Part shown: positions 38,777 through 52,404 of the stretch, piece after piece
Layout of the letters: every line of letters starts with the position of its first letter
Position numbering within the stretch: the first letter of the stretch is position 1
From: Comamonadaceae bacterium
GTDB lineage: Bacteria > Pseudomonadota > Gammaproteobacteria > Burkholderiales > Burkholderiaceae_C
Direction: 5' to 3'
Assembly: GCA_031430035.1 (NCBI GenBank)
Contig: JANPAS010000083.1
Location: forward strand, 36,769 to 100,768
Length of the DNA stretch: 64,000 nucleotides
Program-made: the position numbers and the translations under genes
Notes under the pieces: generated by a model
Told to the model about the DNA's origin: nothing
The model's input: the letters and a program-made list of their open reading frames with translations, nothing else
Database searches by the model: none

Positions 38777-39859
38777 ATGGGACAGTTTAAGGATATTTAC
38801 CGAAACCGGCGGGTTCTGGTCACTGGCCATACGGGGTTCAAAGGGAGCTGGCTTTCATTGTGGCTGCAGGAATTGGGGGCTGTCGTAGCTGGCATTTCTC
38901 TGGCTCCTAATACTTCTCCCAATCATTGGAGTTTGCTTGGGCTCGATATTGACGACGACACCTGTCTCGATATTCGCGACCCGATCAAGCTACAAGAGGC
39001 GATAGCCAGGCTGCAACCGGAAATCGTCTTCCATCTTGCCGCGCAGCCTCTGGTGCGGCAGTCCTACCGTGACCCCCTCGAAACCTGGGGCACTAATGTG
39101 ATCGGGACCGCGAATGTACTGGAGGCCTGCCGTCAAACCCAATCGGTTCGCGCCATCGTGCTTGTGACTTCCGACAAGTGCTATGAAAACGAGGAGTGGG
39201 CATGGGGCTATCGGGAGAATGACCGACTGGGTGGTCACGACCCCTACAGTGCATCCAAGGCGGCGGCTGAAGTGGTTGCGGCGAGCTATAGAAATTCATT
39301 TTTTGATTCCCCTGACTCGCCATTGCTGGCTACTGCCCGGGCAGGCAATGTGATCGGTGGTGGCGATTGGTCCGTGGATCGTTTAATCCCCGACTTGGTC
39401 AGGTCGATCAACACCCAGGAGGTTCTAGAGATACGCTCCCCCAATGCCACCCGACCATGGCAGCACGTCCTAGAGTCATTAAGCGGGTATTTATTGCTGG
39501 GCCAGCAGTTGTTGGAAGGAAAGAGGGAGTTTGCCACGGCATGGAACTTCGGCCCCGCAGCGGAAGGCAATCGATCGGTAACCGAAGTACTTTCACGCCT
39601 CAATGGTGAATGGCCCGCCTTGCGCTGGCAACTCTCAGCATCGGTGCATTTGCATGAAGCCCAATTGCTTTACCTCGATAGCACCATGGCCCGCAGTCGA
39701 CTCAACTGGATGCCAGTGTGGGATTTCAACCAGGCATTATCGGCAACCGCAAGATGGTATCAATCCTGGATAGAGCGCACCGAAGTGGTTAGCCGCAAGC
39801 AGTTGTCCGACTATGTCGCGGCCGCCCAAGAGCAGGGTGTGGGCTGGAGTTGCTCGTGA
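38777..39859 (+). CDS. rfbG: CDP-glucose 4,6-dehydratase
   Basis: RRVLVTGHTGFKGSWLSLWLQELGAVV, VTSDKCYEN, YSASKAAAEVV and RAGNVIGGGDW. Confidence 0.85.
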   Translation: MGQFKDIYRNRRVLVTGHTGFKGSWLSLWLQELGAVVAGISLAPNTSPNHWSLLGLDIDDDTCLDIRDPIKLQEAIARLQPEIVFHLAAQPLVRQSYRDPLETWGTNVIGTANVLEACRQTQSVRAIVLVTSDKCYENEEWAWGYRENDRLGGHDPYSASKAAAEVVAASYRNSFFDSPDSPLLATARAGNVIGGGDWSVDRLIPDLVRSINTQEVLEIRSPNATRPWQHVLESLSGYLLLGQQLLEGKREFATAWNFGPAAEGNRSVTEVLSRLNGEWPALRWQLSASVHLHEAQLLYLDSTMARSRLNWMPVWDFNQALSATARWYQSWIERTEVVSRKQLSDYVAAAQEQGVGWSCS

Positions 39860-40407
39860 AAATAGAGACGACTCCCTTGGACGGAGTGCTGGTCGTTGAC
39901 CTTGAGAGGCGCAGCGATCCGCGCGGCATCTTCATGCGGGTATTTTGTGCTAACGAATTGGCGCAAGTGTTGGGTACTCGGCATGTTGTCCAGTCTAATC
40001 ATAGCTCTAATGCCGAGGTTGGCACGGTGCGAGGCATGCATTTTCAGCATCAACCGCATGCGGAAATGAAGCTGATTACCTGCCTCCACGGCTCGGTTTG
40101 GGATGTGACCGTGGATTTGCGCTCTGGCTCGCCGACATTCCTGCAATGGTTCGCTGTAGAATTGAGTAGTGAAACCCCGCGCCTTCTGGTCATACCGGAA
40201 GGGTGTGCCCACGGTTTCCAGGTGCTGCGCCCTCAAAGCGAGCTGCTTTATTTTCACACCGCTCCTTATACCCCTGAGGCTGAAGGGGGCGTGCGTCATG
40301 ATGATCCGGCATTAGGCATTCGGTGGCCCTTGCCGGTCTCGGAGGTCTCGCAACGAGACCGTGCCCATCTGTCGATAGGTTCTAAATTTACAGGAGTTGT
40401 TGTATGA
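39856..40407 (+). CDS. NDP-4-keto-6-deoxyhexose 3,5-epimerase family (RmlC-like cupin)
   Basis: KIETTPLDGVLVVDLERRSDPRGIF, VRGMHFQ, KLITCLHGSVWDVTVDLR and PEGCAHGF. The likely GTG start at 39856 overlaps the rfbG TGA. Confidence 0.75.
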   Translation: MKIETTPLDGVLVVDLERRSDPRGIFMRVFCANELAQVLGTRHVVQSNHSSNAEVGTVRGMHFQHQPHAEMKLITCLHGSVWDVTVDLRSGSPTFLQWFAVELSSETPRLLVIPEGCAHGFQVLRPQSELLYFHTAPYTPEAEGGVRHDDPALGIRWPLPVSEVSQRDRAHLSIGSKFTGVVV

Positions 40408-41627
40408 AATGCAGGCACTGCAGGAAGGCACTCGAGAATGTCTTTCTCGACCTTGGATTCGCTCCACCTTCCAATGCGTATTTGACTGCACAACAGCTTG
40501 ATGCGCCAGAAGTGACCTTGCCTTTGAGGCTGTTCGTTTGTGATAGCTGCTGGCTTGTTCAGACACAGGATTTTTCGCGGCCGGAGGCATTGTTTGATTT
40601 TGACTACGCATACTACTCTTCGACTTCGCAGACTTGGTTAAATCATGCCAAGGAGTTCGTGAAAAACATCACCGAACGATTTAATTTGAATCGCAATAGC
40701 TTCGTAGTGGAAATAGCATCCAACGATGGGTACCTGCTGCGTAATTTTCTGGTTCCGGGCATTCCTTGTCTGGGAATTGAGCCGACCCAGGGCACGGCTG
40801 AAGTAGCCGAGAAACTGGGCATTCCGGTACTGAAAGAGTTTTTTAATAGCGAGCTGGCGCGCAGCCTAGCAGAAAAGAAAAAGGCGGACCTGATCGTCGG
40901 GAACAACGTATTTGCCCACGTCCCCGACATTAATGACTTTACGGTGGGGATGAGGGAACTTTTAAATAAAAATGGCGTTATCACGCTGGAATTTCCCCAC
41001 CTGATGCAACTGATCGAACACATTCAGTTCGACACTGTTTATCACGAGCACTTTTCCTATCTCTCGCTCTACACGGTTGAGCGCATCTTTAAAGCGGCTA
41101 ATTTGCGCATCTGGGATGTAGAGCAATTGCCTACCCACGGCGGCAGCCTGCGTGTCTATGGGTGTCATGCAGATGACACTCGCGCTAGTACGCCTGCAGT
41201 GGCCGACTTGTTGGCTGAAGAAGTTCAGCATGGCCTGCAAACCTTGGCCACTTACCAAGACTTTCAGGTTCGTGCGAATAAAGTCAAGGACGACTTGCTG
41301 AGTTTTTTGCTCGAACAAAAACGTGTAGGTAAAAAAGTCGTTGCATACGGCGCTGCCGCTAAAGGAAACACCTTGCTCAACTACGCAGGTGTCAAACCAG
41401 ACCTTCTGTCTTTTGTCTGCGATGCCGCCCCAGCCAAGCAGGGTAAATACATGCCGGGCAGCCATATCCCCATCCTGCCGCCCAGTGTCCTGACAGCCAG
41501 CGCGCCTGATTATGTGCTTATCCTGCCGTGGAATATTGCGACGGAGGTTGTGCAGCAAAATGTAACGCTTGCGGCGCAAGGAGCGAAATTTATTACTGCT
41601 GTGCCACGGCTTACGATGCTCAATTGA
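40404..41627 (+). CDS. NDP-hexose C-methyltransferase (TylCIII/KijD1 type)
   Basis: N-terminal zinc ribbon CRHCRKAL...CDSCWLVQ, SAM motif VVEIASNDGYLL, HEHFSYLSL, and a C-terminal Rossmann-like domain VVAYGAAAKGNTLLNY. This is the three-domain layout of sugar C-3 methyltransferases. Confidence 0.75.
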   Translation: MKCRHCRKALENVFLDLGFAPPSNAYLTAQQLDAPEVTLPLRLFVCDSCWLVQTQDFSRPEALFDFDYAYYSSTSQTWLNHAKEFVKNITERFNLNRNSFVVEIASNDGYLLRNFLVPGIPCLGIEPTQGTAEVAEKLGIPVLKEFFNSELARSLAEKKKADLIVGNNVFAHVPDINDFTVGMRELLNKNGVITLEFPHLMQLIEHIQFDTVYHEHFSYLSLYTVERIFKAANLRIWDVEQLPTHGGSLRVYGCHADDTRASTPAVADLLAEEVQHGLQTLATYQDFQVRANKVKDDLLSFLLEQKRVGKKVVAYGAAAKGNTLLNYAGVKPDLLSFVCDAAPAKQGKYMPGSHIPILPPSVLTASAPDYVLILPWNIATEVVQQNVTLAAQGAKFITAVPRLTMLN

Positions 41628-41666
41628 CCTTCGACTCAGCTGTACCGACTCTGTATAAATAAGCCT

Positions 41667-42788
41667 ATGAGCAATCGAATTTACTACACGAAACCATCCA
41701 TAACAGAGCTGGAAGTGCGTTACGCCACTGACGCTGCACAAAACGGCTGGGGTGATCGTTGTTACGACTACATCAACCGCTTTGAAGATGCCTTCAAGCA
41801 ACACCTTGGGGTTAAATACGCCATTGCCACTTCCAGTTGCACCGGCGCACTTCACATGGGTTTGGCATCATTGGGTGTCGGCTCGGGTGACGAAGTGATT
41901 CTGGCAGACACTAACTGGATCGCCAGTGCTGCCCCCATCACCTATCTCGGGGCAAGCCCAGTATTCGTCGATATCCTGCCCGACACATGGTGCCTTGATC
42001 CGCAGCGCGTCCGAGAAGCGATCACGCCGAAAACGAAGGCCATTATTGCTGTGCATCTCTATGGGAATCTGTGCGAGATGGATGAATTGATGTCCATCTC
42101 TAAACATTATGGCATTCCGGTAATTGAGGACGCCGCCGAGGCAATAGGCTCGGTGTATCACGGCAAGCATGCGGGATCGATAGGCAGGTTTGGCGCATTC
42201 TCATTCCACGGTACAAAGACCATCACCACTGGTGAAGGCGGAATGTTTGTCACCAACGATGCAGACTTGTACGAGTACGTGCTGACGTTAAGTAATCATG
42301 GCCGTGCCAGGGGGCAAACGAAGCAGTTCTGGCCTGATATGGTGGGCTTTAAGTACAAAATTTCCAATGTGCAGGCGGCGATCGGTTGTGCCCAGATGGA
42401 GCGTGTCGGGGATCTTGTCGCGCGCAAGCGCGAGATTTTTTCCAACTACCGAAGGCTCCTAGAGCGGTTTCCGGACGTCGTGATCAATCCTGAGTTACCG
42501 AATACCGTAAACGGCGCTTGGATGCCTAGTGCTGTCTTTACGTCGGCATCTGGCATTACTCGCGAACGGTTGCAAGCTGCGTTTGCCGCAGAAAGCATCG
42601 ACGCGCGCGTGTTTTTCAACCCCTTGTCTTCTTTGCCGATGTTCGTGGGGCAAAAGCAAAATCGATTTGCTTGGGATATTCCCAGTCGCGCCATTAATCT
42701 GCCGAGTTTCCATGACATGGAGTTTATCGACCAGGAGCGTGTCATCGATGTTATTGCCAAATTGCTGACAGAAGAGCGAACTCGATGA
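41667..42788 (+). CDS. DegT/DnrJ/EryC1-family sugar aminotransferase, perosamine-synthase-like
   Basis: YYTKPSITELE, SSCTGALHMGL, AVHLYGN, FSFHGTKTITTGEGGMFVTND (Lys), FKYKISNVQAAIGCAQMERV and INLPSF. This closely follows my recollection of the GDP-perosamine synthase (Per/RfbE) sequence pattern. Confidence 0.7.
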   Translation: MSNRIYYTKPSITELEVRYATDAAQNGWGDRCYDYINRFEDAFKQHLGVKYAIATSSCTGALHMGLASLGVGSGDEVILADTNWIASAAPITYLGASPVFVDILPDTWCLDPQRVREAITPKTKAIIAVHLYGNLCEMDELMSISKHYGIPVIEDAAEAIGSVYHGKHAGSIGRFGAFSFHGTKTITTGEGGMFVTNDADLYEYVLTLSNHGRARGQTKQFWPDMVGFKYKISNVQAAIGCAQMERVGDLVARKREIFSNYRRLLERFPDVVINPELPNTVNGAWMPSAVFTSASGITRERLQAAFAAESIDARVFFNPLSSLPMFVGQKQNRFAWDIPSRAINLPSFHDMEFIDQERVIDVIAKLLTEERTR

Positions 42789-43525
42789 AAATTTTGCTGA
42801 TGTGTGACGGGCAAGTGGGGGACCGAATTGCCTGCTGGCTCTTGGACAATTATCCTGAAGATGTCGGGGCGATCGTGACCATCAGCGAAAATGCTACGCG
42901 GATTGCCGCCCATGCCAAAAACATACCTACACTTATCTACCAATCGGAAGCGCAGATAGCGGCTGCATTGACTGCATTGCCGAAATGCAATCTCGGTCTG
43001 TTGGCATGGTGGCCAAAGCTTGTTTCGAAAAAAATTATTGCATTGACTGAGTATGGTTTTATCAACACCCACCCGAGCCTACTGCCCCACAATCGTGGTA
43101 AGCATTACAATTTCTGGGTACTGGTGGAGCAAGCCCCGTTTGGCGTTAGTCTGCACTATGTTGATGAAGGCATAGACAGTGGTGACATCGTGGCGCAAAG
43201 TCCACTTGCCTATGGTTGGGAGGATACCGGCGAAACGTTGTACGCGAAGGCTTTACAGGCGACATTCGATCTATTCAAGAAGACCTACCCTCAGTTGCGA
43301 GTGCAGGGCTTGCCGCGATTCAAGCAGGACCTTAGTCAAGGCAGTTTGCATTATGCCAAGGAGATCGATTTGGCAAGCCAAATCGATCTCGACAAATCTT
43401 ACAGAGCGCGTGACTTGATTAACCTGTTGCGCGCCAGAACGTTTCCCGGTCACCCCGCTTGCATCTTCCATGAAGACGAGGTGGCTTATGAAATTAGCAT
43501 AAAAATCAAGAGGAAATCCGTATGA
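42785..43525 (+). CDS. Sugar N-formyltransferase
   Basis: FINTHPSLLPHNRGKHYNFW (the catalytic Asn/His motif of N10-formyl-THF transferases) and VDEGIDSGDIVAQ (catalytic Asp). The small 246-aa size resembles WbkC/WbtJ. Confidence 0.7.
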   Translation: MKILLMCDGQVGDRIACWLLDNYPEDVGAIVTISENATRIAAHAKNIPTLIYQSEAQIAAALTALPKCNLGLLAWWPKLVSKKIIALTEYGFINTHPSLLPHNRGKHYNFWVLVEQAPFGVSLHYVDEGIDSGDIVAQSPLAYGWEDTGETLYAKALQATFDLFKKTYPQLRVQGLPRFKQDLSQGSLHYAKEIDLASQIDLDKSYRARDLINLLRARTFPGHPACIFHEDEVAYEISIKIKRKSV

Positions 43526-44301
43526 CTACCTATGAAAAATTTAAACAAGAGTGCGAGCAGGAAATCGCGGCAATTGGCCGTGATAGCGTTTTTCTGGACG
43601 CTACGCGTGACTGGGTAAACAGAGCCAATGCTCAGAAATATTCATATCATTTTGAATGGCTGGGCCGCCCCATTATTCAATACCCACAAGATATTATTGC
43701 CATGCAGGAGTTGATCTGGCGCGTGAAGCCCGACTTGATTATCGAGACTGGGATCGCACACGGAGGATCGTTGATTCTTAGCGCTTCGATGCTCGCTCAA
43801 CTTGATATGTGTGACGCCATTGAGGCTGGCCAAATGTTCGATCCCCGTAAGTCAAATCGGTTGGTCATCGGCCTAGACATCGATATACGAGCTCATAATA
43901 AGACTGCAATCGAAGGGCACCCGATGGGGTCGCGTATTAAAATGCTCCAAGGTTCCAGTGTGGCTCCCGAAATCGTTGCTGAGGTCAAGAAGCTAGCAGC
44001 AAACTACAAACGAGTGTTGGTTTGCCTTGATTCAAACCATACGCACGAGCATGTGTTGGCTGAACTTGAAGCTTATGCACCACTTACTAGCGTGGGAAGT
44101 TACTGTGCAGTGTTCGATACCATTATTGAAGATATGCCAGCCGAAATGTTTCCCGACCGCCCTTGGGGACCTGGTAACAATCCAAAAACTGCAGTATGGG
44201 AATTCCTCAAAACGCACACTGAGTTTGAAATTGACAAGAGTATCCAGCACAAACTGCTGATTACGGTGGCGCCGGATGGATATCTGAAGCGATGTGGATA
44301 A
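43522..44301 (+). CDS. CmcI (cephalosporin hydroxylase) family methyltransferase
   Basis: WLGRPIIQYPQDIIAMQELIWRVKPDLIIETGIAHGGSL and VCLDSNHTHEHV. The family includes sugar O-methyltransferases. Confidence 0.65.
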   Translation: MTTYEKFKQECEQEIAAIGRDSVFLDATRDWVNRANAQKYSYHFEWLGRPIIQYPQDIIAMQELIWRVKPDLIIETGIAHGGSLILSASMLAQLDMCDAIEAGQMFDPRKSNRLVIGLDIDIRAHNKTAIEGHPMGSRIKMLQGSSVAPEIVAEVKKLAANYKRVLVCLDSNHTHEHVLAELEAYAPLTSVGSYCAVFDTIIEDMPAEMFPDRPWGPGNNPKTAVWEFLKTHTEFEIDKSIQHKLLITVAPDGYLKRCG

Positions 44302-44386: not shown

Positions 44387-45169
44387 ATGAAGGCAGTAAT
44401 TCTCGCCGGCGGTCTAGGAACAAGGATTTCAGAGGAGTCCAATGTCAGGCCCAAGCCGATGATAGAAATCGGCGGCAAGCCGATCCTGTGGCATATCATG
44501 AAAACATATTCCAGCCACGGAATCAATGACTTCATCGTGTGCTGCGGCTACAAGGGCTATGTCATCAAGGAGTATTTCTCGAACTATTTCCTGCATATGT
44601 CGGACATCACCTTTGACTTGCAGAGCAATCAGGTGCAAGTCCATCAAAAGTTCGCGGAGCCATGGCGTGTCACTTTGGTGGATACCGGGGAGGAAACCAT
44701 GACAGGGGGGCGATTGAAGCGTGTCGCACCCTACTTGGCCGGGGAAGACGCCTTCTGCATGACCTATGGGGATGGCGTAAGTGATGTGGATATCACGGCA
44801 TTGATCGAGTTTCATCGGAGTCATGGTTTGAACGCCACCTTGACTGCGACACATGCCCCAACCCGCTTCGGTGTGCTAGACATATTGTCAGACATGACAG
44901 TGAAATCGTTCAAGGAGAAACCCGAGGACATGCGGGACATGATCAACGGCGGCTTCTTCGTGCTGTCTCCCAAGGTGCTTGACCTGATCGTAGGGGATCA
45001 GACAGTCTGGGAGCGGGAGCCCCTAGAAACTTTGGCTGAGCGGGGGCAATTGAAAGCGTTCAGGCACGATGGGTTTTGGCAGCCCATGGACACCCTACGT
45101 GACAAAAATTTTCTCGAGTCCCTCTGGAACTCGCGTGCGGCGCCCTGGGCTACATGGAAAACCCAATGA
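44387..45169 (+). CDS. rfbF: Glucose-1-phosphate cytidylyltransferase
   Basis: [64 protein letters not shown] and TGGRLKRV. Confidence 0.9.
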
Positions 45170-46491
45170 ATAAATTAAATCGATTGGATGAGATCCGTTT
45201 GCAGATTACGGGTTTGGTGGACGAATACGCAAGCCTCAAGTTCGCTGCGACGGATTTCGTGCCAGGGGTGACGGCTGTCCCTCCCTCCGGGAAAATGATT
45301 GGAGGCGAGGAGCTGCGCTTGATGATGGAGGCCTCGCTGGATGGCTGGCTCACGGCCGGACGTTTTAACGAGGAATTTGAACAGAAGCTGGCGAAGTTCC
45401 TCGGCGTAAAACACCTGATCACGGTCAATTCTGGCTCATCTGCCAACCTAGTGGCCTTTAATACCCTGACCAGCCCCAAGCTCGGCGATCGCGCAATCAA
45501 GCCCGGCGATGAAGTCATCGGCGTCGCGGCCGGTTTCCCGACCACGGTCAACCCTATCCTCCAGTTTGGCGCGGTTCCCGTATTCGTCGATGTCGAACTC
45601 GGCACCTACAATATCGATGCCAGCCAGATCGAAGCCGCCATCAGTCCCAAAACCAAGGCCATTATGTTGGCCCATACGCTGGGTAATCCCTACAACCTCG
45701 ACGTCGTCACCGCGCTGTGCAAGAAGCATGGTCTGTGGCTGATCGAGGATTGCTGTGACGCTTTGGGATCCACGTACAACGGCCGTATGGTGGGCGGATT
45801 CGGCGACATCGGCACCTTGAGCTTTTATCCGGCACATCACATCACGATGGGCGAAGGCGGTGCAGTGTTTACCAACAATGGTGAGCTACGGCAGATCGCC
45901 GAGAGTTTCCGCGATTGGGGCCGGGACTGTTATTGCCCGCCCGGCAAGGACAATACCTGCGGGCGCCGCTTCTGCTGGAAATTGGGGAATCTGCCGGAAG
46001 GCTACGACCACAAGTACACCTACTCGCATCTCGGCTACAACCTAAAAATTACGGACATGCAGGCTGCTTGCGGTGTGGCGCAACTGGCCAAGGCCGATTT
46101 TTTCATCCAGCGCCGGAAGGAAAATTTCAATTACCTGAAGAGTCGCCTCGCTTCCTGCGAGGAATTCATGATCCTTCCCGAGGCGACCGCCGGCTCTGCG
46201 CCGTCCTGGTTCGGCTTCCCCATCACCTTGCGCGAGAATTCTTCGACCAGTCGGGGTGACCTGATCGGTTACTTGGATCAATGCAAGATCGGCACACGCC
46301 TGCTGTTTGCTGGCAACCTGACGCGCCAGCCGTATATGATCGGCCGAAACTTCCGGATCAGCGGTGAATTGACCAATACCGATGTGGTGATGCGCAACAC
46401 CTTCTGGATCGGCGTGCAACCAGCTCTCAGCGAAGAAATGCTTGACTATTCCGCGAGCCGGATCGAAGCCTTTCTGGGCGTCAACTTTTAA
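45166..46491 (+). CDS. rfbH: CDP-6-deoxy-L-threo-D-glycero-4-hexulose 3-dehydrase (E1) family, RfbH/DdhC-like
   Basis: Long colinear similarity to my recollection of Salmonella RfbH: [46 protein letters not shown] (His in place of the PLP Lys), [23 protein letters not shown] (Fe-S Cys cluster) and [22 protein letters not shown]. The start is either the ATG at 45166 (ATGA overlap) or the ATG at 45154. Confidence 0.9.
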
Positions 46492-46500
46492 GACACTTCT

Positions 46501-47325
46501 GTGACTTCAGACCTTTCCCGTTTTGACCCCCGCCGATTGCGACGCACCGTGCTCGAGATGGCCTTTGCCGGATCGACGGTGCATATCGGCTGCGCCTTTT
46601 CCATTGTCGAAATTCTAGCTGTCCTGTATCGCAGCCACCTGCGTTATCCGGGCAACGATCCCGAAGCGACCGGCCGCGATTACCTAGTGCTGAGCAAGGG
46701 ACATGGCGTGATGGCTCAATATGCCTGCATGCGGGAGCTGGAATGGTTGGATGACAACGCGATTCGGAATTATTTTTCAGACGGCAGCCATCTCAAGGGG
46801 TTGTCCGATTCCCGCGTTCCTGGCCTGGAAGTGACTTCTGGCTCCCTCGGGCATGGTTTCTCTGTCGGCGTTGGTCTGGCATTGGCGGCAAAGCGGCTGG
46901 GCACTGATCAAAAAACTTTTGTCGTCGTTGGCGATGGTGAAATGAATGAAGGACCGATCTGGGAAGGTGCCTTGTTTGCGGCCCACCATCAGCTGAAGAA
47001 CTTCATGGTGATCGTGGATGAAAACGGCTTCCAAGCTATGGGCAGGACCCGCGATGTACTCGACCTGAATTCGCTGCAGCGCAAGCTGGAAGCCTTTGGT
47101 TTTGAAGCAGTGTTGGTGGATGGCCATGACCAACGCGCACTTGATGAAGCGATTGCCAGTCTGGGCAAAAGCGAAAAAACCGCGCCCAAGGCAATCATTG
47201 CACGCACGATCAAAGGGAAGGGCGTTGCTTTCATGGAGGACGACAACCGCTGGCATTACACACGGTTGACCGATGACACTTATCGTCAGGCGCTGGCATG
47301 TCTTGACTTGGAGAGCGCCAAATGA
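46501..47325 (+). CDS. Transketolase-like ThDP enzyme, N-terminal (PP-domain) subunit
   Basis: GTG start. HIGCAFSIVEILAVLY, LSKGHG, GSLGHGFSVGVGLA and VVGDGEMNEGPIWE (GDG-x-N ThDP/Mg motif). Confidence 0.8.
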   Translation: MTSDLSRFDPRRLRRTVLEMAFAGSTVHIGCAFSIVEILAVLYRSHLRYPGNDPEATGRDYLVLSKGHGVMAQYACMRELEWLDDNAIRNYFSDGSHLKGLSDSRVPGLEVTSGSLGHGFSVGVGLALAAKRLGTDQKTFVVVGDGEMNEGPIWEGALFAAHHQLKNFMVIVDENGFQAMGRTRDVLDLNSLQRKLEAFGFEAVLVDGHDQRALDEAIASLGKSEKTAPKAIIARTIKGKGVAFMEDDNRWHYTRLTDDTYRQALACLDLESAK

Positions 47326-48236
47326 GGGCTGCCTTTTCCAAAACCTTGGCCGATATCGCGCGTGCCGATCCGCGGGTAGTGCTGCTGACCGGCGACCATG
47401 GTTATGCGCTGTTCGACGAGTTCCGCCAGGTTTGTCCAGACCAGTACATCAATGCTGGCATTGCCGAGCAGAACATGATCGGCGTCGCTGCCGGCATGGT
47501 GCGCGCCGGATTCCGGCCCTATGTCTACGGCCTCGCCGCCTTCGTGCCAATCAGGGTGCTGGAGCAGATCAAGATCGACCTTGCGCATGACCGCCTACCT
47601 GTGGTCCTGATCGGTGATGGCGCCGGCATGGTCTACAGCCACTTGGGAACCAGTCACCAGGCGACAGAAGACATCGCCGTGACCAGAGCGCTGGCCAATC
47701 TGCAGGTCTACTCCCCGGCTGACCGTCACGAGCTGACCCGCTGCCTTGAATTGAGCGCCCATGCCTCGACCACCATCTACCTGCGCATAGGCAAGGCAGA
47801 CCGGGGCGATGTGCACCCCGCGCCAGTCACGGCCAATGCCGGCGACTTGCTGCCTGTGCGGCAGGGCGGCACAGACCTGGTGTTTCTCGCAACGGGCTCC
47901 ATGGTGCGCACCGCGATCGACATCGCCGACCGTTTTTATCCGCAAGCCTCAGTGTGGAGCGCGCCATTCATTAAACCGATCGACGCCGCCCGTGTCATCG
48001 ACATCGCTCGCCAGGCGCAGACCGTCGTCTGCATGGAGGAGCACTCTGTCCATGCAGGCTTCGGCTCCCTGGTCTGCGAGCTGGTGGCCGAGCACGCACC
48101 TACTCGGGTGTTGCGTATCGGCGTCCAGGACCGCTATTCACAGCATTGCGGCAGCTATGACTACCTGTTGCAGGAACATGGGCTGGATGCGCACGCCGTC
48201 ACCGAACGGATCGGGCAATTTATGCAGAAGTCCTGA
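47322..48236 (+). CDS. Transketolase-like ThDP enzyme, C-terminal (Pyr + C-domain) subunit
   Basis: YINAGIAEQNMIGVAAGM, GTSHQATEDIA and VCMEEHSVHAGFGS. It has a 4-nt overlap with the N-terminal subunit gene. Confidence 0.8.
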   Translation: MRAAFSKTLADIARADPRVVLLTGDHGYALFDEFRQVCPDQYINAGIAEQNMIGVAAGMVRAGFRPYVYGLAAFVPIRVLEQIKIDLAHDRLPVVLIGDGAGMVYSHLGTSHQATEDIAVTRALANLQVYSPADRHELTRCLELSAHASTTIYLRIGKADRGDVHPAPVTANAGDLLPVRQGGTDLVFLATGSMVRTAIDIADRFYPQASVWSAPFIKPIDAARVIDIARQAQTVVCMEEHSVHAGFGSLVCELVAEHAPTRVLRIGVQDRYSQHCGSYDYLLQEHGLDAHAVTERIGQFMQKS

Positions 48237-49171
48237 TGAAGCGCATCGCCATCCTTGGCGCGTCGAGCCGCATTGCGGGAGACCTGATCCTGTGGCTGGC
48301 CCAGCAGCCTGACACGGCACTCCATCTGTTCGTGCGCCGGCCACAGCAGATGCTTGACTGGCTGCACCAGAATGACATCGCGGGCCACGCCCAGGTAGGG
48401 CTCTACCCGAATTTTGGCGAGGGTGGCGAGTACTTCGCGGTGATCAATTTCGTCGGCGTTGGCGATCCGGCAAGGGCCTTGTCCATGGGTGCGGAAATCC
48501 TAGATCTGACGCATCGGTTCGACAGCCTCGCGCTGGAGTATGTGAAGCGCCATCCGCACTGTCGTTATTTGTTCACCAGCAGCGGCGCTGCTTATGGCAG
48601 CCGTTTCGAGTCGCCGGTGGACGAGGGCACCCAAGCTGTCTTTGCCATCAATGCGTTGGGAAGCGATGCTTGGTATGGCATAGCCAAGGCCCATGCCGAG
48701 TGCCGGCACCGGGCGCATCCCAAGCTGCCGATCATGGACATTCGCATTTTCAATTACATCAGCCAGACGCAGGACCTGTCGGCGCGCTTTCTGGTCACCG
48801 ATGCCATCCGCGCGATCCGAGACCGGACCGTCTTGCAGACTTCCGCTGAACGGACCGTGCGCGATTACTTGCATACCAGCGATTTTTGCGCCCTGGTCGA
48901 TGCCGTGCTGGCTGCGCCGCCGACCAACGATGTCATCGACTGCTATAGCAAGGCACCGATTGAGAAGACGGAATTGCTGCAAGCCTTGCAGGCCGCATTC
49001 GGGCTGCGCTATACGGTGTCGCCGGAGCAGGCGGACATCAACGCAACCGGACACAAGCCCTGTTACTACTCGGTCAATCGCCGTGCCCGCCACTTTGGCT
49101 ATGCGCCGGCATTCAACTCCCTGGACGGAGTCCTCGACGCCACCGCCGCACTGCTGGACGCCGGTGCTTAA
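48236..49171 (+). CDS. Extended SDR (NAD-dependent epimerase/reductase family)
   Basis: IAILGASSRIAGDL, FTSSGAAYG, YGIAKAHAE (YxxxK) and RIFNY. It directly follows the split transketolase. Confidence 0.6.
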   Translation: MKRIAILGASSRIAGDLILWLAQQPDTALHLFVRRPQQMLDWLHQNDIAGHAQVGLYPNFGEGGEYFAVINFVGVGDPARALSMGAEILDLTHRFDSLALEYVKRHPHCRYLFTSSGAAYGSRFESPVDEGTQAVFAINALGSDAWYGIAKAHAECRHRAHPKLPIMDIRIFNYISQTQDLSARFLVTDAIRAIRDRTVLQTSAERTVRDYLHTSDFCALVDAVLAAPPTNDVIDCYSKAPIEKTELLQALQAAFGLRYTVSPEQADINATGHKPCYYSVNRRARHFGYAPAFNSLDGVLDATAALLDAGA

Positions 49172-49207
49172 GGCCTGCCGCACTCCAACCACATTTCAAG
49201 AAACGTG

Positions 49208-50257
49208 ATGAACCGCCCAAGCGACAATATTTTTATCGACCCCTCTTATCCTGTCTTCAATCAGGACAAGTTATTCGACCTGGGCGATCCTTTGCTCAAT
49301 CGCGATGATCAATTGCTGCCATTCCACCGCTTGCGGGAACATTTGCACGCGCTCGGTAAATCCGTCCATACGGCGGATTACCTGTTGTCGGGCGATGCCG
49401 GTCCAGGCGGAACAAGCGCTTGTGGCTATTACTCCCTGGGCATCCTCGACAATTACCAGCGCATCGCCCGCGAAGGCCAGGCCAGGCTGAAGTCATTCGT
49501 GATCATGGAGCCGCCGGTGGTCGCACCGCACCTGTACCAGGCTTTGCCAGCACTCACGAATGCGTTCGAACGGGTCTATGTTCACAACACCGATGGCGAC
49601 TGCTATTCCCTAGCTGGGGTGCAGCAGGACAAGCTCAGGCGGCTCTATTGGCCGCTGCCCCACGCCGAAGTGCTGGAGCCCTACTGGAGCCAGCGCGACC
49701 GGATGCAGCGTATCGTGGTGATCAACGGCAGCCACAAGCCGCGCTCGTTCGACAAGGAGCTGTACAGCAAGCGCATCGATGCAATGGCGGCGCTGGCGCC
49801 CACGGGTGCAGTTGACCTGTTCGGCCGTGGCTGGGAACGCTGGTGGTCAGGCGAGGCGCGCTGGATGCCCTATTGGCGTAACCGTCGCACGCTGATGTCG
49901 ATCTATCAGGGCGCTTGCGCGTCCAAGTTCGAAGTGCTGCAGCGCTATGCGTTTTGTCTGTGCTTCGAAAATATGGCAATGAATGGCTACATCACGGAAA
50001 AGTTATTCGACTGCCTCTATGCCGGAACCATTCCGCTCTATCTGGGCGCCCCGGACATCCTTCGCTACATCCCGCAGGATGTGTTCATCGACTGCAGGCA
50101 ATATGCTTCCTGGGACGAGATGTGGAATGAGGTCAGGCTGATCCCAGCTTCACGTATCGAAGCGATGTGTGAAGCTGGCCGCCAGTTCCTGGGCAGTGAA
50201 GCCGCCCAACCCTTTTACAATTCGCTATTGCACTTGGGCTGGGGGGCAAATGAATAA
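49208..50257 (+). CDS. Glycosyltransferase family 10-like (alpha-1,3/4-fucosyltransferase type)
   Basis: C-terminal motif YAFCLCFENMAMNGYITEKLFDCLYAGTIPLYLGAPDI corresponds to the FucT motif F.L.FEN....YVTEK. GDP-fucose genes are present in the same operon. Confidence 0.55.
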   Translation: MNRPSDNIFIDPSYPVFNQDKLFDLGDPLLNRDDQLLPFHRLREHLHALGKSVHTADYLLSGDAGPGGTSACGYYSLGILDNYQRIAREGQARLKSFVIMEPPVVAPHLYQALPALTNAFERVYVHNTDGDCYSLAGVQQDKLRRLYWPLPHAEVLEPYWSQRDRMQRIVVINGSHKPRSFDKELYSKRIDAMAALAPTGAVDLFGRGWERWWSGEARWMPYWRNRRTLMSIYQGACASKFEVLQRYAFCLCFENMAMNGYITEKLFDCLYAGTIPLYLGAPDILRYIPQDVFIDCRQYASWDEMWNEVRLIPASRIEAMCEAGRQFLGSEAAQPFYNSLLHLGWGANE

Positions 50258-51305
50258 AGACGCCGCCCCTGTGCCCCTGGTGTCGGCACCGCTGGTGTCG
50301 ATCTGCATTCCTACCTACAATTCTGGGGAAACACTGGCCGAAACGCTGGCATCGATCATCGCGCAAACTTACTTGCGCCTGGAAATACTGGTGGTCGACA
50401 ACGCTTCTGCCGACGATACGTTGGAGGTAGCCCGTCGTTTTGACGATCCACGCATCCGTATCCACGAGAATGCCGACAACATTGGAGCCGAAGGCAATTT
50501 CAATCGTTGCATCCAGCTGGCCAGCGGCGAGTACACCGCGATCTATCATGCTGATGATCTTTATCTGCCGCAGATGGTCGCCGAGCAGGTCGGCTTCTTG
50601 GAGCGCCATACGGAGGTGGGCGGCGTGCTTACTGAGGCGCTGCTGATCGACGGCAGTGGCAGGCAGGCGGGCGCCATCAGCCTTCCCGCTGAATTGCACC
50701 GGAAGAACGACGTGGGCGTCACTTTTCCGGAATTGTTCAGCGCCTTGCTGCGCCACTCGAATTTCCTGATTTGTCCCAGCGCCATGGTTCGCACCACGCT
50801 CTATCAGAACGTCATCAAGGGCTGGCGCGGTGACTTGTTCGGTTCGTCGGCCGACCTCGATATCTGGCTCAGGATCGCCCACCACTCCCAGCTGGGACTG
50901 CTGCCAGCGAAGCTGATGAAGTACAGGATCAGCACTGCCCAATTCTCGTCGAAAGTTCGTTACCAGACCGGACGGGCTGATTTTTTCCGTGTCATGGACC
51001 ACTATCTTTTGCAAGACGATGTGCGTGCAGTCATGACGCCGCGCGACCTTGAGAACTATCAGCGACTGGTCCGCCGCGACACCGTGATGCGCGCCGCCAA
51101 CCTGTTTTTGACCGACCAATTCCCGCAGGTGGCATCGCTGTTAAATGACTTTTTCAGCGTCGACATGCTGTTCGCGGCAATGCGCGATAAAAGGAGCTTC
51201 GTCGTCTTGCTGCTGGGTTCCTATCTGAAAATTGTCAATTTGCCCGGGCTGCGCAGTTGCGGCCAGGCACCACTGCGGCAATTGAAGCATGCGCTTGGGA
51301 AGTAG
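50250..51305 (+). CDS. Glycosyltransferase family 2
   Basis: VSICIPTYNSGETLAETLASIIAQTY, EILVVDNASADDT and YHADDLY (DxD). The start was moved to the ATG at 50250, overlapping the upstream stop. Confidence 0.8.
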   Translation: MNKDAAPVPLVSAPLVSICIPTYNSGETLAETLASIIAQTYLRLEILVVDNASADDTLEVARRFDDPRIRIHENADNIGAEGNFNRCIQLASGEYTAIYHADDLYLPQMVAEQVGFLERHTEVGGVLTEALLIDGSGRQAGAISLPAELHRKNDVGVTFPELFSALLRHSNFLICPSAMVRTTLYQNVIKGWRGDLFGSSADLDIWLRIAHHSQLGLLPAKLMKYRISTAQFSSKVRYQTGRADFFRVMDHYLLQDDVRAVMTPRDLENYQRLVRRDTVMRAANLFLTDQFPQVASLLNDFFSVDMLFAAMRDKRSFVVLLLGSYLKIVNLPGLRSCGQAPLRQLKHALGK

Positions 51306-51348
51306 GACTTGTCTTCCATGCTCTTCATCGATCCGTACCTTGAATAAA

Positions 51349-52404
51349 ATGCACGAAAAACTGTTTATCCATGCTACCAACGTCCACCAGGGTGGCGGAC
51401 GGACATTGCTTGATGCGCTCTTGCAGCTATCGTTCAGGCAAGACACGACAGCGCTGCTGGACGAACGCATGCCAGTACCGAAAGCCATGCCGTCGGGTAC
51501 CCAGCTGATACGGGCGAAAGCATCCCTGTTGGGTCGATTGCGCGCCGAGCGTTTGCTAGCCGCCCAGGCAAAGTCCGGAGATACGGTTATTTGTTTCGGC
51601 AATCTGCCGCCTTTGTTCAGGGTGGCCGGGCGGGTGATTGTATTTGTCCAGAACCGCTACTTGATCGATCAGGTTTCACTGGACCAGTTTCCTTTCAAAT
51701 CCCGGCTGCGGCTAAGCCTTGAGCGCACCTGGTTCAGGATGCGTGCAGCGAGTGTGGACGAGTATGTGGTGCAAACGCCCAGCATGAAGCAGGCCTTGGA
51801 GCACCATCTTGCGAACATCAAAACGAAGCCTAGACTAGACATCAGGATACTTCCCTTCGTCAGTGGCGGTTCCCGACACTCGCGGGCGCGCACGGTTGCT
51901 GTCCATGAGACGCAAAAGCGCCATGACTTCGTGTATGTGGGGTCAGGAGAGCCCCATAAGAACCACCGCAATCTGATCAATGCATGGATACTGCTGGCGC
52001 AGGCAAACTGCTATCCATCACTGGCACTGACTGTCGATGCGGCCGCGTTCCCCGACTTGTGCCAATGGATTGATGAGCAGACCCGCATTCACCGGCTGCA
52101 CATCGAGAACAAGGGTGCCTTGCCCCAATCCGGGGTAACAGACCTTTACAATTGTTCTGCCGCGCTGATTCACCCGTCAACATTGGAGTCTTTCGGTTTG
52201 CCCCTGATCGAGGCGCGAAACGCAGGGCTGGCGGTTCTGGCCGGCGAGCTCGACTATGTCAGGGATATCTTGGATCCTGAAGAGAGCTTTGATCCGCAGT
52301 CTGCCGTCTCGATTGCCAGGGCCGTCAAGCGATTCAGGCGCATGGAAGAGCCTGCACTCAGCATTGTCGATGCAAGGACGTTCATCGATTCGCTGGTGTC
52401 GTAA
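51349..52404 (+). CDS. GT-B glycosyltransferase, family 4-like
   Basis: FVYVGSGEPHKNHRNLI and LIHPSTLESFGLPLIEARNAGLAVLAGELDYVRDI (E-x7-E). The start is set at the internal ATG at 51349. Confidence 0.7.
   Translation: MHEKLFIHATNVHQGGGRTLLDALLQLSFRQDTTALLDERMPVPKAMPSGTQLIRAKASLLGRLRAERLLAAQAKSGDTVICFGNLPPLFRVAGRVIVFVQNRYLIDQVSLDQFPFKSRLRLSLERTWFRMRAASVDEYVVQTPSMKQALEHHLANIKTKPRLDIRILPFVSGGSRHSRARTVAVHETQKRHDFVYVGSGEPHKNHRNLINAWILLAQANCYPSLALTVDAAAFPDLCQWIDEQTRIHRLHIENKGALPQSGVTDLYNCSAALIHPSTLESFGLPLIEARNAGLAVLAGELDYVRDILDPEESFDPQSAVSIARAVKRFRRMEEPALSIVDARTFIDSLVS

Follow-up and report, generated by a model that had tools for sequence, protein, structure and literature searches.

The 64,000-nucleotide stretch of Comamonadaceae DNA analysed here (contig JANPAS010000083.1 of assembly GCA_031430035.1, positions 36,769 to 100,768; the window) carries, within a glycan locus, two adjacent genes for the subunits of a split transketolase (TK), followed by a gene for a short-chain dehydrogenase/reductase (SDR). 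The likely function of the three proteins is to turn the product of the 3-dehydrase RfbH, encoded directly upstream, into a C-branched 3,6-dideoxyhexose. With somewhat lower confidence we propose that the TK pair and the SDR catalyse the final two reactions of a CDP-sugar pathway, in which they would take the places of YerE and YerF of yersiniose A synthesis. This reading draws on the conserved linkage of the TK genes to rfbF, rfbG and rfbH, on an SDR family shared with clusters that contain YerE-like enzymes, and on substitutions in the TK active site.

Linkage of the split transketolase to rfbF, rfbG and rfbH

Relatives of the TK pair were collected by a scan of species-representative genomes, in which the window proteins were placed by tblastn. 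The scan yielded 80 loci (labelled L, contigs C; 62-78% identity) from Beta-, Gamma- and Alphaproteobacteria, Planctomycetota, Chlorobiaceae, Cytophagales and cyanobacteria. Of the 64 loci whose upstream flank reaches 4 kb or more, 59 contain rfbF-rfbG-rfbH directly upstream of, and colinear with, the genes for subunit A (TKN) and subunit B (TKC), a count that takes in L068, where rfbH abuts TKN. The order RfbF-RfbG-RfbH-TKN-TKC-SDR was read directly in Rhodoferax fermentans, Methylobacter and Achromobacter. Three of the remaining five loci belong to Cyanobium and have a DegT gene for rfbH, one has rfbF only and one, from Microcystis, has none of the three genes. The recurrence of the same gene order in dozens of genomes means that the arrangement is far beyond chance. 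The window's own bacterial family was sampled evenly (301 genomes), and the TK matches there were bimodal, nine with 59-100% identity and about 50 other split TKs with at most 43%. All nine carriers of the clade (clade A hereafter) possess rfbH no more than 1.1 kb upstream, while rfbH overall occurs in 39 of the 301 genomes; by our own arithmetic, the hypergeometric chance of this linkage is about 4e-9. An analysis of co-occurrence with rfbH had been proposed in an earlier sequence-only reading of this DNA, and both counts, nine of nine family carriers and 59 of 64 loci, bear the association out.

The same reading had described the TK pair and the SDR as a self-contained three-gene unit. This description has to be given up, since the conserved unit comprises rfbF-rfbG-rfbH together with TKN, TKC and SDR and often also takes in the gene of the E3 reductase, which in 20 of the 80 loci precedes rfbF. 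In the window, rfbG is located 5 kb upstream, so that the TK pair would depend on neighbouring genes for its acceptor.

Homologues of subunit A number more than 5,900, the best 120 of which are 72-100% identical; the cassette occurs in about 3% of the species of the window's family, and its carriers include cultured non-pathogens. Cultured carriers are, for instance, Paucimonas lemoignei DSM 7445, Caballeronia sordidicola LMG 22029, Ideonella azotifigens JCM 15503 and Pseudanabaena biceps PCC 7429. A class-wide sample contained the clade in only two of 400 genomes. In the TKN tree, clade A is monophyletic (100/100) with a long stem. Its branching conflicts with taxonomy, as the sister of the window sequence comes from Rhodobacterales, and sequences of Chlorobiaceae, Cytophagales and Planctomycetota branch within those of Burkholderiales. 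This conflict indicates that the cassette spread horizontally.

Some loci with a different make-up were also seen. The three Cyanobium loci (L056, L057, L066) have rfbF and rfbG and, in RfbH's place, a DegT-family gene with 44-45% identity. In Microcystis aeruginosa NIES-4325, the TK pair is followed by a glycosyltransferase (GT) gene of family GT2, and no rfbF, rfbG or rfbH was found within 9.8 kb upstream; the Microcystis loci are L082, L084 and L087. The genome of the window itself contains a second rfbF-rfbG-rfbH set without a transketolase (C47:38330-41489, equivalent to L089 7330-10489), whose RfbH is 76% identical and which is followed by two open reading frames (250 and 282 aa) without a Pfam match.

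The SDR and the position of YerE

In the 301 family genomes, the SDR search gave five matches, three of them after the TK pair and two near rfbH in genomes lacking the TK. In locus L094, genes for an E3 (Fer2-FAD-NAD), RfbF, RfbG and RfbH are followed by those for a TPP_enzyme_N/M/C protein of 569 aa, an SDR of 311 aa and a GT2 protein. The 569-aa enzyme is acetolactate-synthase-like, with a score below the cut-off, and was read as YerE-type; the SDR encoded after it is 48% identical to the window SDR over its full length. This arrangement equals the ddhDABC-yerE-yerF layout known from Yersinia and Pseudomonas WCS417 (PMC4509608, PMC9306805). At L095, the same SDR family stands beside an enzyme resembling acetohydroxyacid synthase (AHAS) and a DmpG/HMGL aldolase, a layout that is erwiniose-like.

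The partner of the SDR was further determined by a metagenome scan with the SDR alignment, which gave 80 loci, 52 of them with upstream flank. The gene preceding the SDR is YerE-like in 38 of these 52 loci (rfbF-rfbG-rfbH-YerE-like-SDR), a clade A TK in seven and a second split-TK type in two, with five unresolved. The window SDR is 54-59% identical to the SDRs of the 38 loci, and with several YerE-partnered ones the identity (57-59%) is above that with many TK-partnered SDRs. In the SDR tree the partner type switches at least twice. Since the flanks are the same and the same slot of about 1.7 kb holds either a YerE-type enzyme or a split TK, the split TK looks, by gene order and SDR relationship, like a non-orthologous displacement of YerE. 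The role of the cassette is thus more predictable than the sequence-only reading had held, given the YerF-type SDR and a TK in the apparent YerE slot.

Ser115/116, Tyr147 and Lys151 are invariant in the SDR, and an Arg-Arg after its second strand suggests the use of NADPH. A PDB sequence search with the SDR returned only matches to dTDP-glucose dehydratases (E ~1e-4), and an NCBIfam match was not obtained for the window SDR. The orthology of these SDRs to YerF of Yersinia was inferred from synteny. Among the loci of the sub-lineage that has the E3 gene upstream of rfbF (L015, L027, L032, L045, L047, L049, L052-L055, L058, L063, L070-L072, L081 and others), the readable gene after the TK encodes an extended SDR of about 350 aa with the motif ITGGTGFIGR, which may give another stereochemistry or another site of reduction.

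Identity and active site of the transketolase pair

The pair shows the hallmarks of the TK superfamily, with the PP domain in one chain and both Pyr and TK_C domains in the other (Pfam). The motifs GDGEMNEG...DENG and IAEQ (equivalent of Glu411) are invariant in the clade. The subunit genes are adjacent as in other split TKs, overlapping in an ATGA, and TKC adjoins TKN in 77 of the 80 loci. The closest PDB entry is 6yak, the split TK of Carboxydothermus (169 bits for subunit A and 155 bits for the second chain), and subunit A scores 39 bits on E1_dh versus 118 on Transketolase_N. On the other hand, the pair stays far below the equivalog cut-offs, with 242 and 137 bits versus 488 for NF004559, the best-scoring model, and 126 versus 682 for TIGR00232. 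For dxs (TIGR00204), 36 and 137 bits were obtained versus a cut-off of 466, and the enzyme consists of two chains, unlike the single-chain DXS.

The statement of the sequence-only reading that this is not a central-metabolism tkt was confirmed by the host genome assembly (2.68 Mb, 228 contigs), in which a canonical tkt lies next to the gene gap on contig C13 and scores above the cut-off (917 bits). The genome also holds a second full-length TK, another split TK (contig C207) and a dxs-like match (contig C10). A housekeeping function in the pentose phosphate pathway was therefore rejected, on account of these genes and of the lost phosphate site described below. The split TK on C207 (C207:2934-6771; L006, L007) is 35% identical to that of the window, has Met at the position of His100 and Tyr at 469, and adjoins a short-chain SDR and a second full-length transketolase. 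Split TKs of this type are frequent in the family (about 45 of 301 genomes) and show no linkage to rfbH.

To compare active sites, the window pair was aligned with the canonical TK of the genome and with the Carboxydothermus split TK (numbering of Escherichia coli TK). In clade A, subunit A has kept His26, His66, His261, the Asp of the GDG motif and the Asn of the Mg site, and subunit B has kept Glu411, His473 and Arg358. By contrast, 200 of the 201 clade sequences have Leu (Leu101 in the window) where a bona fide TK (EC 2.2.1.1) has the donor-site His100. Of the acceptor ligands of a bona fide TK, Arg358 alone is kept and the four others are replaced, His461 by Gly and Asp469 by Leu in 77 of 77 clade sequences, Arg520 by Lys in 76 of 77 and Ser385 by Ala in 70 of 77, the other seven having Ser.

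In characterised enzymes, H66, H100, G114 and H473 bind the donor, and DXS always has Phe at position 100 (PMC7661550). His100 contacts the ketol hydroxyl of the donor (PMC7661550, PMC10787763). An H100L exchange lifts the pyruvate activity of Geobacillus TK to one third of that of DXS (PMC7661550), and E. coli TK, which cannot use pyruvate as wild type, is enabled to do so by H100L plus D469T (PMC10787763). The anionic group is held by S385, H461, R520 and R358, which are placed around the entrance (PMC10787763). It follows that a substitution of the H100L type would point to a non-hydroxylated 2-oxo acid as donor, most simply pyruvate. With Asp469Leu, His461Gly and Arg520Lys, the ligands for the alpha-hydroxyl and the phosphate are gone, which argues for a non-phosphorylated acceptor without an alpha-hydroxyl. 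The acceptor pocket predicted in this way fits a 3-deoxy-4-keto sugar.

A second split-TK clade linked to rfbH is 41-43% identical and shows the order rfbF-rfbG-rfbH-SDR-TKN-TKC (L090-L093). It has Gly461, Leu469 and Lys520 but keeps His100, a combination that predicts the same acceptor and a hydroxylated donor. The branch formed by this clade may thus come from a hydroxylated C2 unit, and the resulting sugar would differ from that of clade A. Loci of this clade (L090-L093, L140, L189) come from genomes and metagenomes, and the SDR often precedes the TK. In the TKN tree, clade A and this second clade join at a polytomy.

Proposed pathway and alternatives

RfbH has His228 in place of the lysine that binds pyridoxal phosphate, while the neighbouring aminotransferase keeps the lysine. 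Its cysteines C201, C259, C261 and C269 are invariant, and their spacing, C-X57-C-X-C-X7-C, is presumably that of the [2Fe-2S] motif of E1. By these residues, RfbH is a genuine E1, and its expected product is CDP-4-keto-3,6-dideoxy-D-glucose. This compound is the acceptor of YerE (PMC12247030) and the predicted acceptor of the TK pair.

In the proposed route, RfbF would convert glucose-1-phosphate to CDP-glucose and RfbG would convert the latter to CDP-4-keto-6-deoxyglucose. RfbH (E1) would then remove the 3-hydroxyl to give CDP-4-keto-3,6-dideoxy-D-glucose, with electrons from a ferredoxin-reductase-type protein encoded elsewhere. The TK-like enzyme, an A2B2 assembly dependent on thiamine diphosphate (ThDP), would decarboxylate pyruvate, and the hydroxyethyl-ThDP carbanion would add to the C-4 ketone, yielding a tertiary alcohol with a 4-C-acetyl branch. 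The YerF-type SDR would reduce the acetyl carbonyl to a 1-hydroxyethyl group, giving a CDP-yersiniose-like sugar, which the neighbouring glycosyltransferases, possibly the GT10-like one, would place into the polysaccharide. For pyruvate as the specific donor, we see slightly better than an even chance. The extension to clade A as a whole, by which these would be widespread natural carboligases of TK fold that join a unit from pyruvate, the donor, to a CDP-dideoxyhexose with its C-4 ketone as acceptor, and would have spread horizontally through at least six phyla, is put forward tentatively and falls a little short of an even chance.

Several points weigh against the proposed route. An E3 reductase gene (ddhD/ascD) was not found in the window, and elsewhere in the genome the only E3 match is a Fer2-FAD-NAD protein of 35% identity (contig C181). 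For general reductases serving 3-dehydrases, there is precedent (SpnQ). The assignment of pyruvate rests mainly on one residue, and non-hydroxylated 2-oxo acids of greater length would suit it just as well. The different SDR of about 350 aa, which is not YerF-type, is present in about half of the loci of the clade, and the reaction of YerF itself is only inferred in the literature (PMC4753412). In the window, rfbG is not adjacent and a second CDP-sugar module is interleaved, so that cross-talk between the modules may occur. Moreover, the activity of the clade and the glycans of its carriers are predictions from the genes.

Different donors can be envisaged within the same pathway. With hydroxypyruvate or a ketose phosphate as donor, a C2 ketol would be transferred to the same acceptor to form a 4-C-hydroxyacetyl branch, later reduced to 1,2-dihydroxyethyl. 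Ketol transfer is the canonical chemistry of the TK family, it has been proposed for the Streptomyces split TKs and for miharamycin and amipurimycin (PMC12247030), and His473 and His66, further contacts of the donor, are retained. However, the ligand of the donor hydroxyl, His100, is Leu in all but one of the 201 sequences, the phosphate-binding residues are lost, and the SDR is shared with YerE-type clusters that use pyruvate or 2-oxo acids. The retention of His100 in the second rfbH-linked clade suggests that hydroxylated donors are used there and not in clade A. Ketol transfer is therefore considered unlikely. Little different is our estimate for a longer 2-oxo acid, such as 2-oxobutyrate or a 4-hydroxy-2-oxo acid, which would give an erwiniose- or caryophyllose-like branch and which we regard as improbable, if anything slightly more so. 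YerE-like enzymes such as ErwE do accept longer donors (PMC12247030), and the SDR family occurs in the aldolase-containing, erwiniose-like cluster L095, but neither the window cassette nor the 80 loci examined for cassette genes contain an aldolase or dehydrogenase that would make such a donor, and most relatives of the SDR belong to plain rfbFGH-YerE-SDR clusters without an aldolase.

It is very improbable that the SDR merely reduces the ring ketone at C-4 to give an unbranched 3,6-dideoxyhexose, the TK being unrelated to the pathway (a metabolic enzyme, a supplier of a substituent or a relic). The CDP-abequose and CDP-paratose synthases are likewise SDRs of about 300 aa, and the Pfam scores of the window SDR are weak. 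Against this, a ThDP enzyme, YerE-like or TK, stands beside this SDR family in 47 of the 52 loci; this and the missing NCBIfam match led to the rejection of a CDP-abequose/paratose-type ring reductase. Further points against this reading are the adjacency of rfbH in every family carrier and in about 92% of the loci across phyla, the intact ThDP and catalytic residues, the conservation of 62-96% identity, the canonical tkt and dxs of the genome and the loss of the phosphate site.

Organisation of the locus in the window

The genes of the cassette and its surroundings are listed in Table 1. The three open reading frames are located as the sequence-only reading had placed them, with the same overlaps and the same lengths of the two subunits, and the GDGEMNEG motif indeed lies in the first protein, subunit A. 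The position of the TK pair and the SDR between rfbH and a fucosyltransferase-like gene was likewise verified. The subunit genes share 4 nt (ATGA, 47322-47325), by which their translation is predicted to be coupled, and the gene for subunit B overlaps that of the SDR by 1 nt (TGATG, 48234-48238).

Table 1. Genes of the split-transketolase cassette and associated genes in the window
Feature	Coordinates	Strand	Remarks
TK-family subunit A (TKN; PP domain, predicted ThDP/Mg binding)	46501..47325	+	274 aa, GTG start; Transketolase_N 117.8 bits
TK-family subunit B (TKC; Pyr + TK_C domains)	47322..48236	+	304 aa; Transket_pyr 92.6, Transketolase_C 70.6 bits
YerF-type extended SDR, predicted NAD(P)H-dependent reductase	48236..49171	+	311 aa; Pfam Epimerase/SDR 44 bits
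rfbF/ddhA, glucose-1-phosphate cytidylyltransferase	44387..45169	+	TIGR02623 452 bits, cut-off 300
rfbH/ddhC (E1), CDP-4-keto-6-deoxyglucose 3-dehydrase (pyridoxamine phosphate/[2Fe-2S])	45154..46491	+	NF011936 734 bits, above cut-off
rfbG/ddhB, CDP-glucose 4,6-dehydratase	38777..39859	+	TIGR02622 485 bits, cut-off 278
GT10-like (fucosyltransferase-like) glycosyltransferase	49205..50257	+	Pfam Glyco_transf_10 53 bits
GT2 and GT1 glycosyltransferases	50169..52404	+	Pfam GT2 97 bits, GT1 45 bits

From about 35.5 kb to 60.6 kb, the window consists of a single co-oriented glycan locus, which additionally encodes GDP-fucose synthesis. The window's rfbF is colinear with and 65-74% identical to its counterparts in related loci. 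The cassette's own rfbG is missing here. The sole rfbG of the locus is separated from the cassette by a five-gene module and is only 46-52% identical to the cassette-internal rfbG copies of relatives. The module (39850-44301) encodes an RmlC-like 3,5-epimerase, a C-methyltransferase (Methyltransf_13/14), a DegT aminotransferase, an N-formyltransferase and a CmcI-type methyltransferase. In no case is the TK of the 80 related loci accompanied by any of them, and their participation in the TK pathway was therefore dismissed as unsupported. A second CDP-linked sugar (C-methyl, N-formylamino), derived from the same 4-keto-6-deoxy intermediate, is the probable product of the module, and RfbF and RfbG probably serve both CDP-sugar branches.

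Downstream of the cassette, similarity extends to the glycosyltransferases. In the two nearest cassettes, L009 and L023, GT10 homologues (64-67% identity) follow right after the SDR, and the same GT2 (56-59%) and the GT1 (54%) come next in the same order. One Rhodobacterales and one Methylobacter genome have this GT10-GT2(-GT1) block in common with the window, with 54-67% identity (L009 12683-; L023 11387-). It seems that a larger block including the glycosyltransferases moves together. At L001, a GT10 gene abuts rfbF. The GT10-like protein is, by association, a candidate transferase for the branched sugar, although the locus also has the GDP-fucose genes. At L002 (Methylobacter) and L004 (Achromobacter), the cassette is followed by genes for GtrA and a GT2 of the GtrB-like type, and at L002 a YfhO-family protein precedes it. 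This suggests that there the sugar is transferred via undecaprenyl phosphate and decorates the glycan on the periplasmic side.

Significance

In a 2025 review of ThDP enzymes with tertiary alcohols as products, YerE-like enzymes are the only ones listed for sugars of lipopolysaccharide, and TK-type branching of keto sugars appears there as uncharacterised proposals only, without a structure (PMC12247030). The view of the sequence-only reading that the biochemical role of such split TKs has not been established agrees with this review, which calls TK branching proposed only, for Streptomyces. A description of a TK coupled to rfbH/ddhC was not found in the full-text literature, a search whose coverage excluded most subscription journals. 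C-branching of CDP-4-keto-3,6-dideoxyglucose by a ThDP enzyme has been demonstrated for YerE-type enzymes alone. As judged from the gene content, the cassette most likely attaches two carbons to a CDP-sugar as a branch and then reduces this branch, for use in a surface polysaccharide.

If the proposed route is correct, clade A would comprise the first TKs shown to form a tertiary alcohol and would represent an independent solution to the YerE reaction. His100Leu and Asp469Leu are natural counterparts of the changes by which protein engineers have altered TK specificity, and with confirmed function the enzymes would be a new scaffold for biocatalysts that make chiral tertiary alcohols. Thousands of genes annotated as 'transketolase' in glycan loci would receive a correct annotation, and yersiniose-like sugars would be predicted in freshwater Burkholderiales, methanotrophs and cyanobacteria. 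The second clade, with His100 kept, would make a dideoxy sugar with a hydroxyacetyl or dihydroxyethyl branch. To our knowledge, such a sugar has not been reported from bacterial glycans, though no search for one was made.

Comparison with known systems

Two-subunit ThDP enzymes that attach a branch to a sugar are known from antibiotic synthesis. AviB1/AviB2 and Pau11/Pau12 of avilamycin and paulomycin synthesis use pyruvate to form an acetyl branch at C-4 of an NDP-keto sugar, followed by ketoreduction (PMC4753412). These enzymes differ from the window pair in that they belong to the PDH-E1-like alpha/beta superfamily (E1/alpha-KADH2) and act on antibiotic sugars of the dTDP type. Closer in protein family are the split TKs of miharamycin and amipurimycin synthesis and of 13 further Streptomyces biosynthetic gene clusters, which likewise lie in a sugar cluster and for which an attack on a keto sugar has been proposed (PMC12247030). 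They belong, however, to actinomycete secondary metabolism and would transfer a hydroxylated unit, whereas the window clade occurs in surface-glycan loci of Gram-negative and cyanobacterial hosts, is linked to rfbH and has Leu100.

The split TK of Carboxydothermus hydrogenoformans (6YAK/6YAJ) has the same two-chain A2B2 architecture without a linker. It is a genuine TK, which keeps His100, His461, Asp469 and Arg520 (PMC7661550), while all four are replaced in the window enzyme. With the engineered E. coli TK '6M' (H100L/D469T), the H100L variant of Geobacillus TK and DXS, the latter shares a hydrophobic side chain at position 100 and a residue other than an acidic one at 469. Substitutions of this kind were found to make pyruvate the donor and to direct the enzyme to non-hydroxylated carbonyls as acceptors (PMC10787763, PMC7661550). 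Unlike the window pair, the engineered TKs are laboratory variants that act on aldehydes, and DXS is a single-chain enzyme that uses glyceraldehyde-3-phosphate.

A further close system is the pathway by which Yersinia pseudotuberculosis O:6 makes yersiniose A (DdhA-D, YerE, YerF). It has the same upstream genes ddhA, ddhB and ddhC, and as rfbF, rfbG and rfbH are shared, the same acceptor is predicted. In both cases a reductase comes immediately after the ThDP enzyme, the window SDR being 48-59% identical to SDRs that are partnered with YerE-like enzymes, a group that includes ErwE, JanthE and MMAR_2332 (PMC12247030). The differences lie in the E3 gene (ddhD), which the window does not have, and in the ThDP enzyme, since YerE is a single-chain flavoprotein of the AHAS/decarboxylase family, whereas the window enzyme is a two-chain TK (PP and Pyr+TK_C) and its cassette encodes no TPP_enzyme_N/M/C protein. 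As the cassette manages without an AHAS-family enzyme, it would be similar to the yersiniose pathway in function without containing a member of the YerE family.

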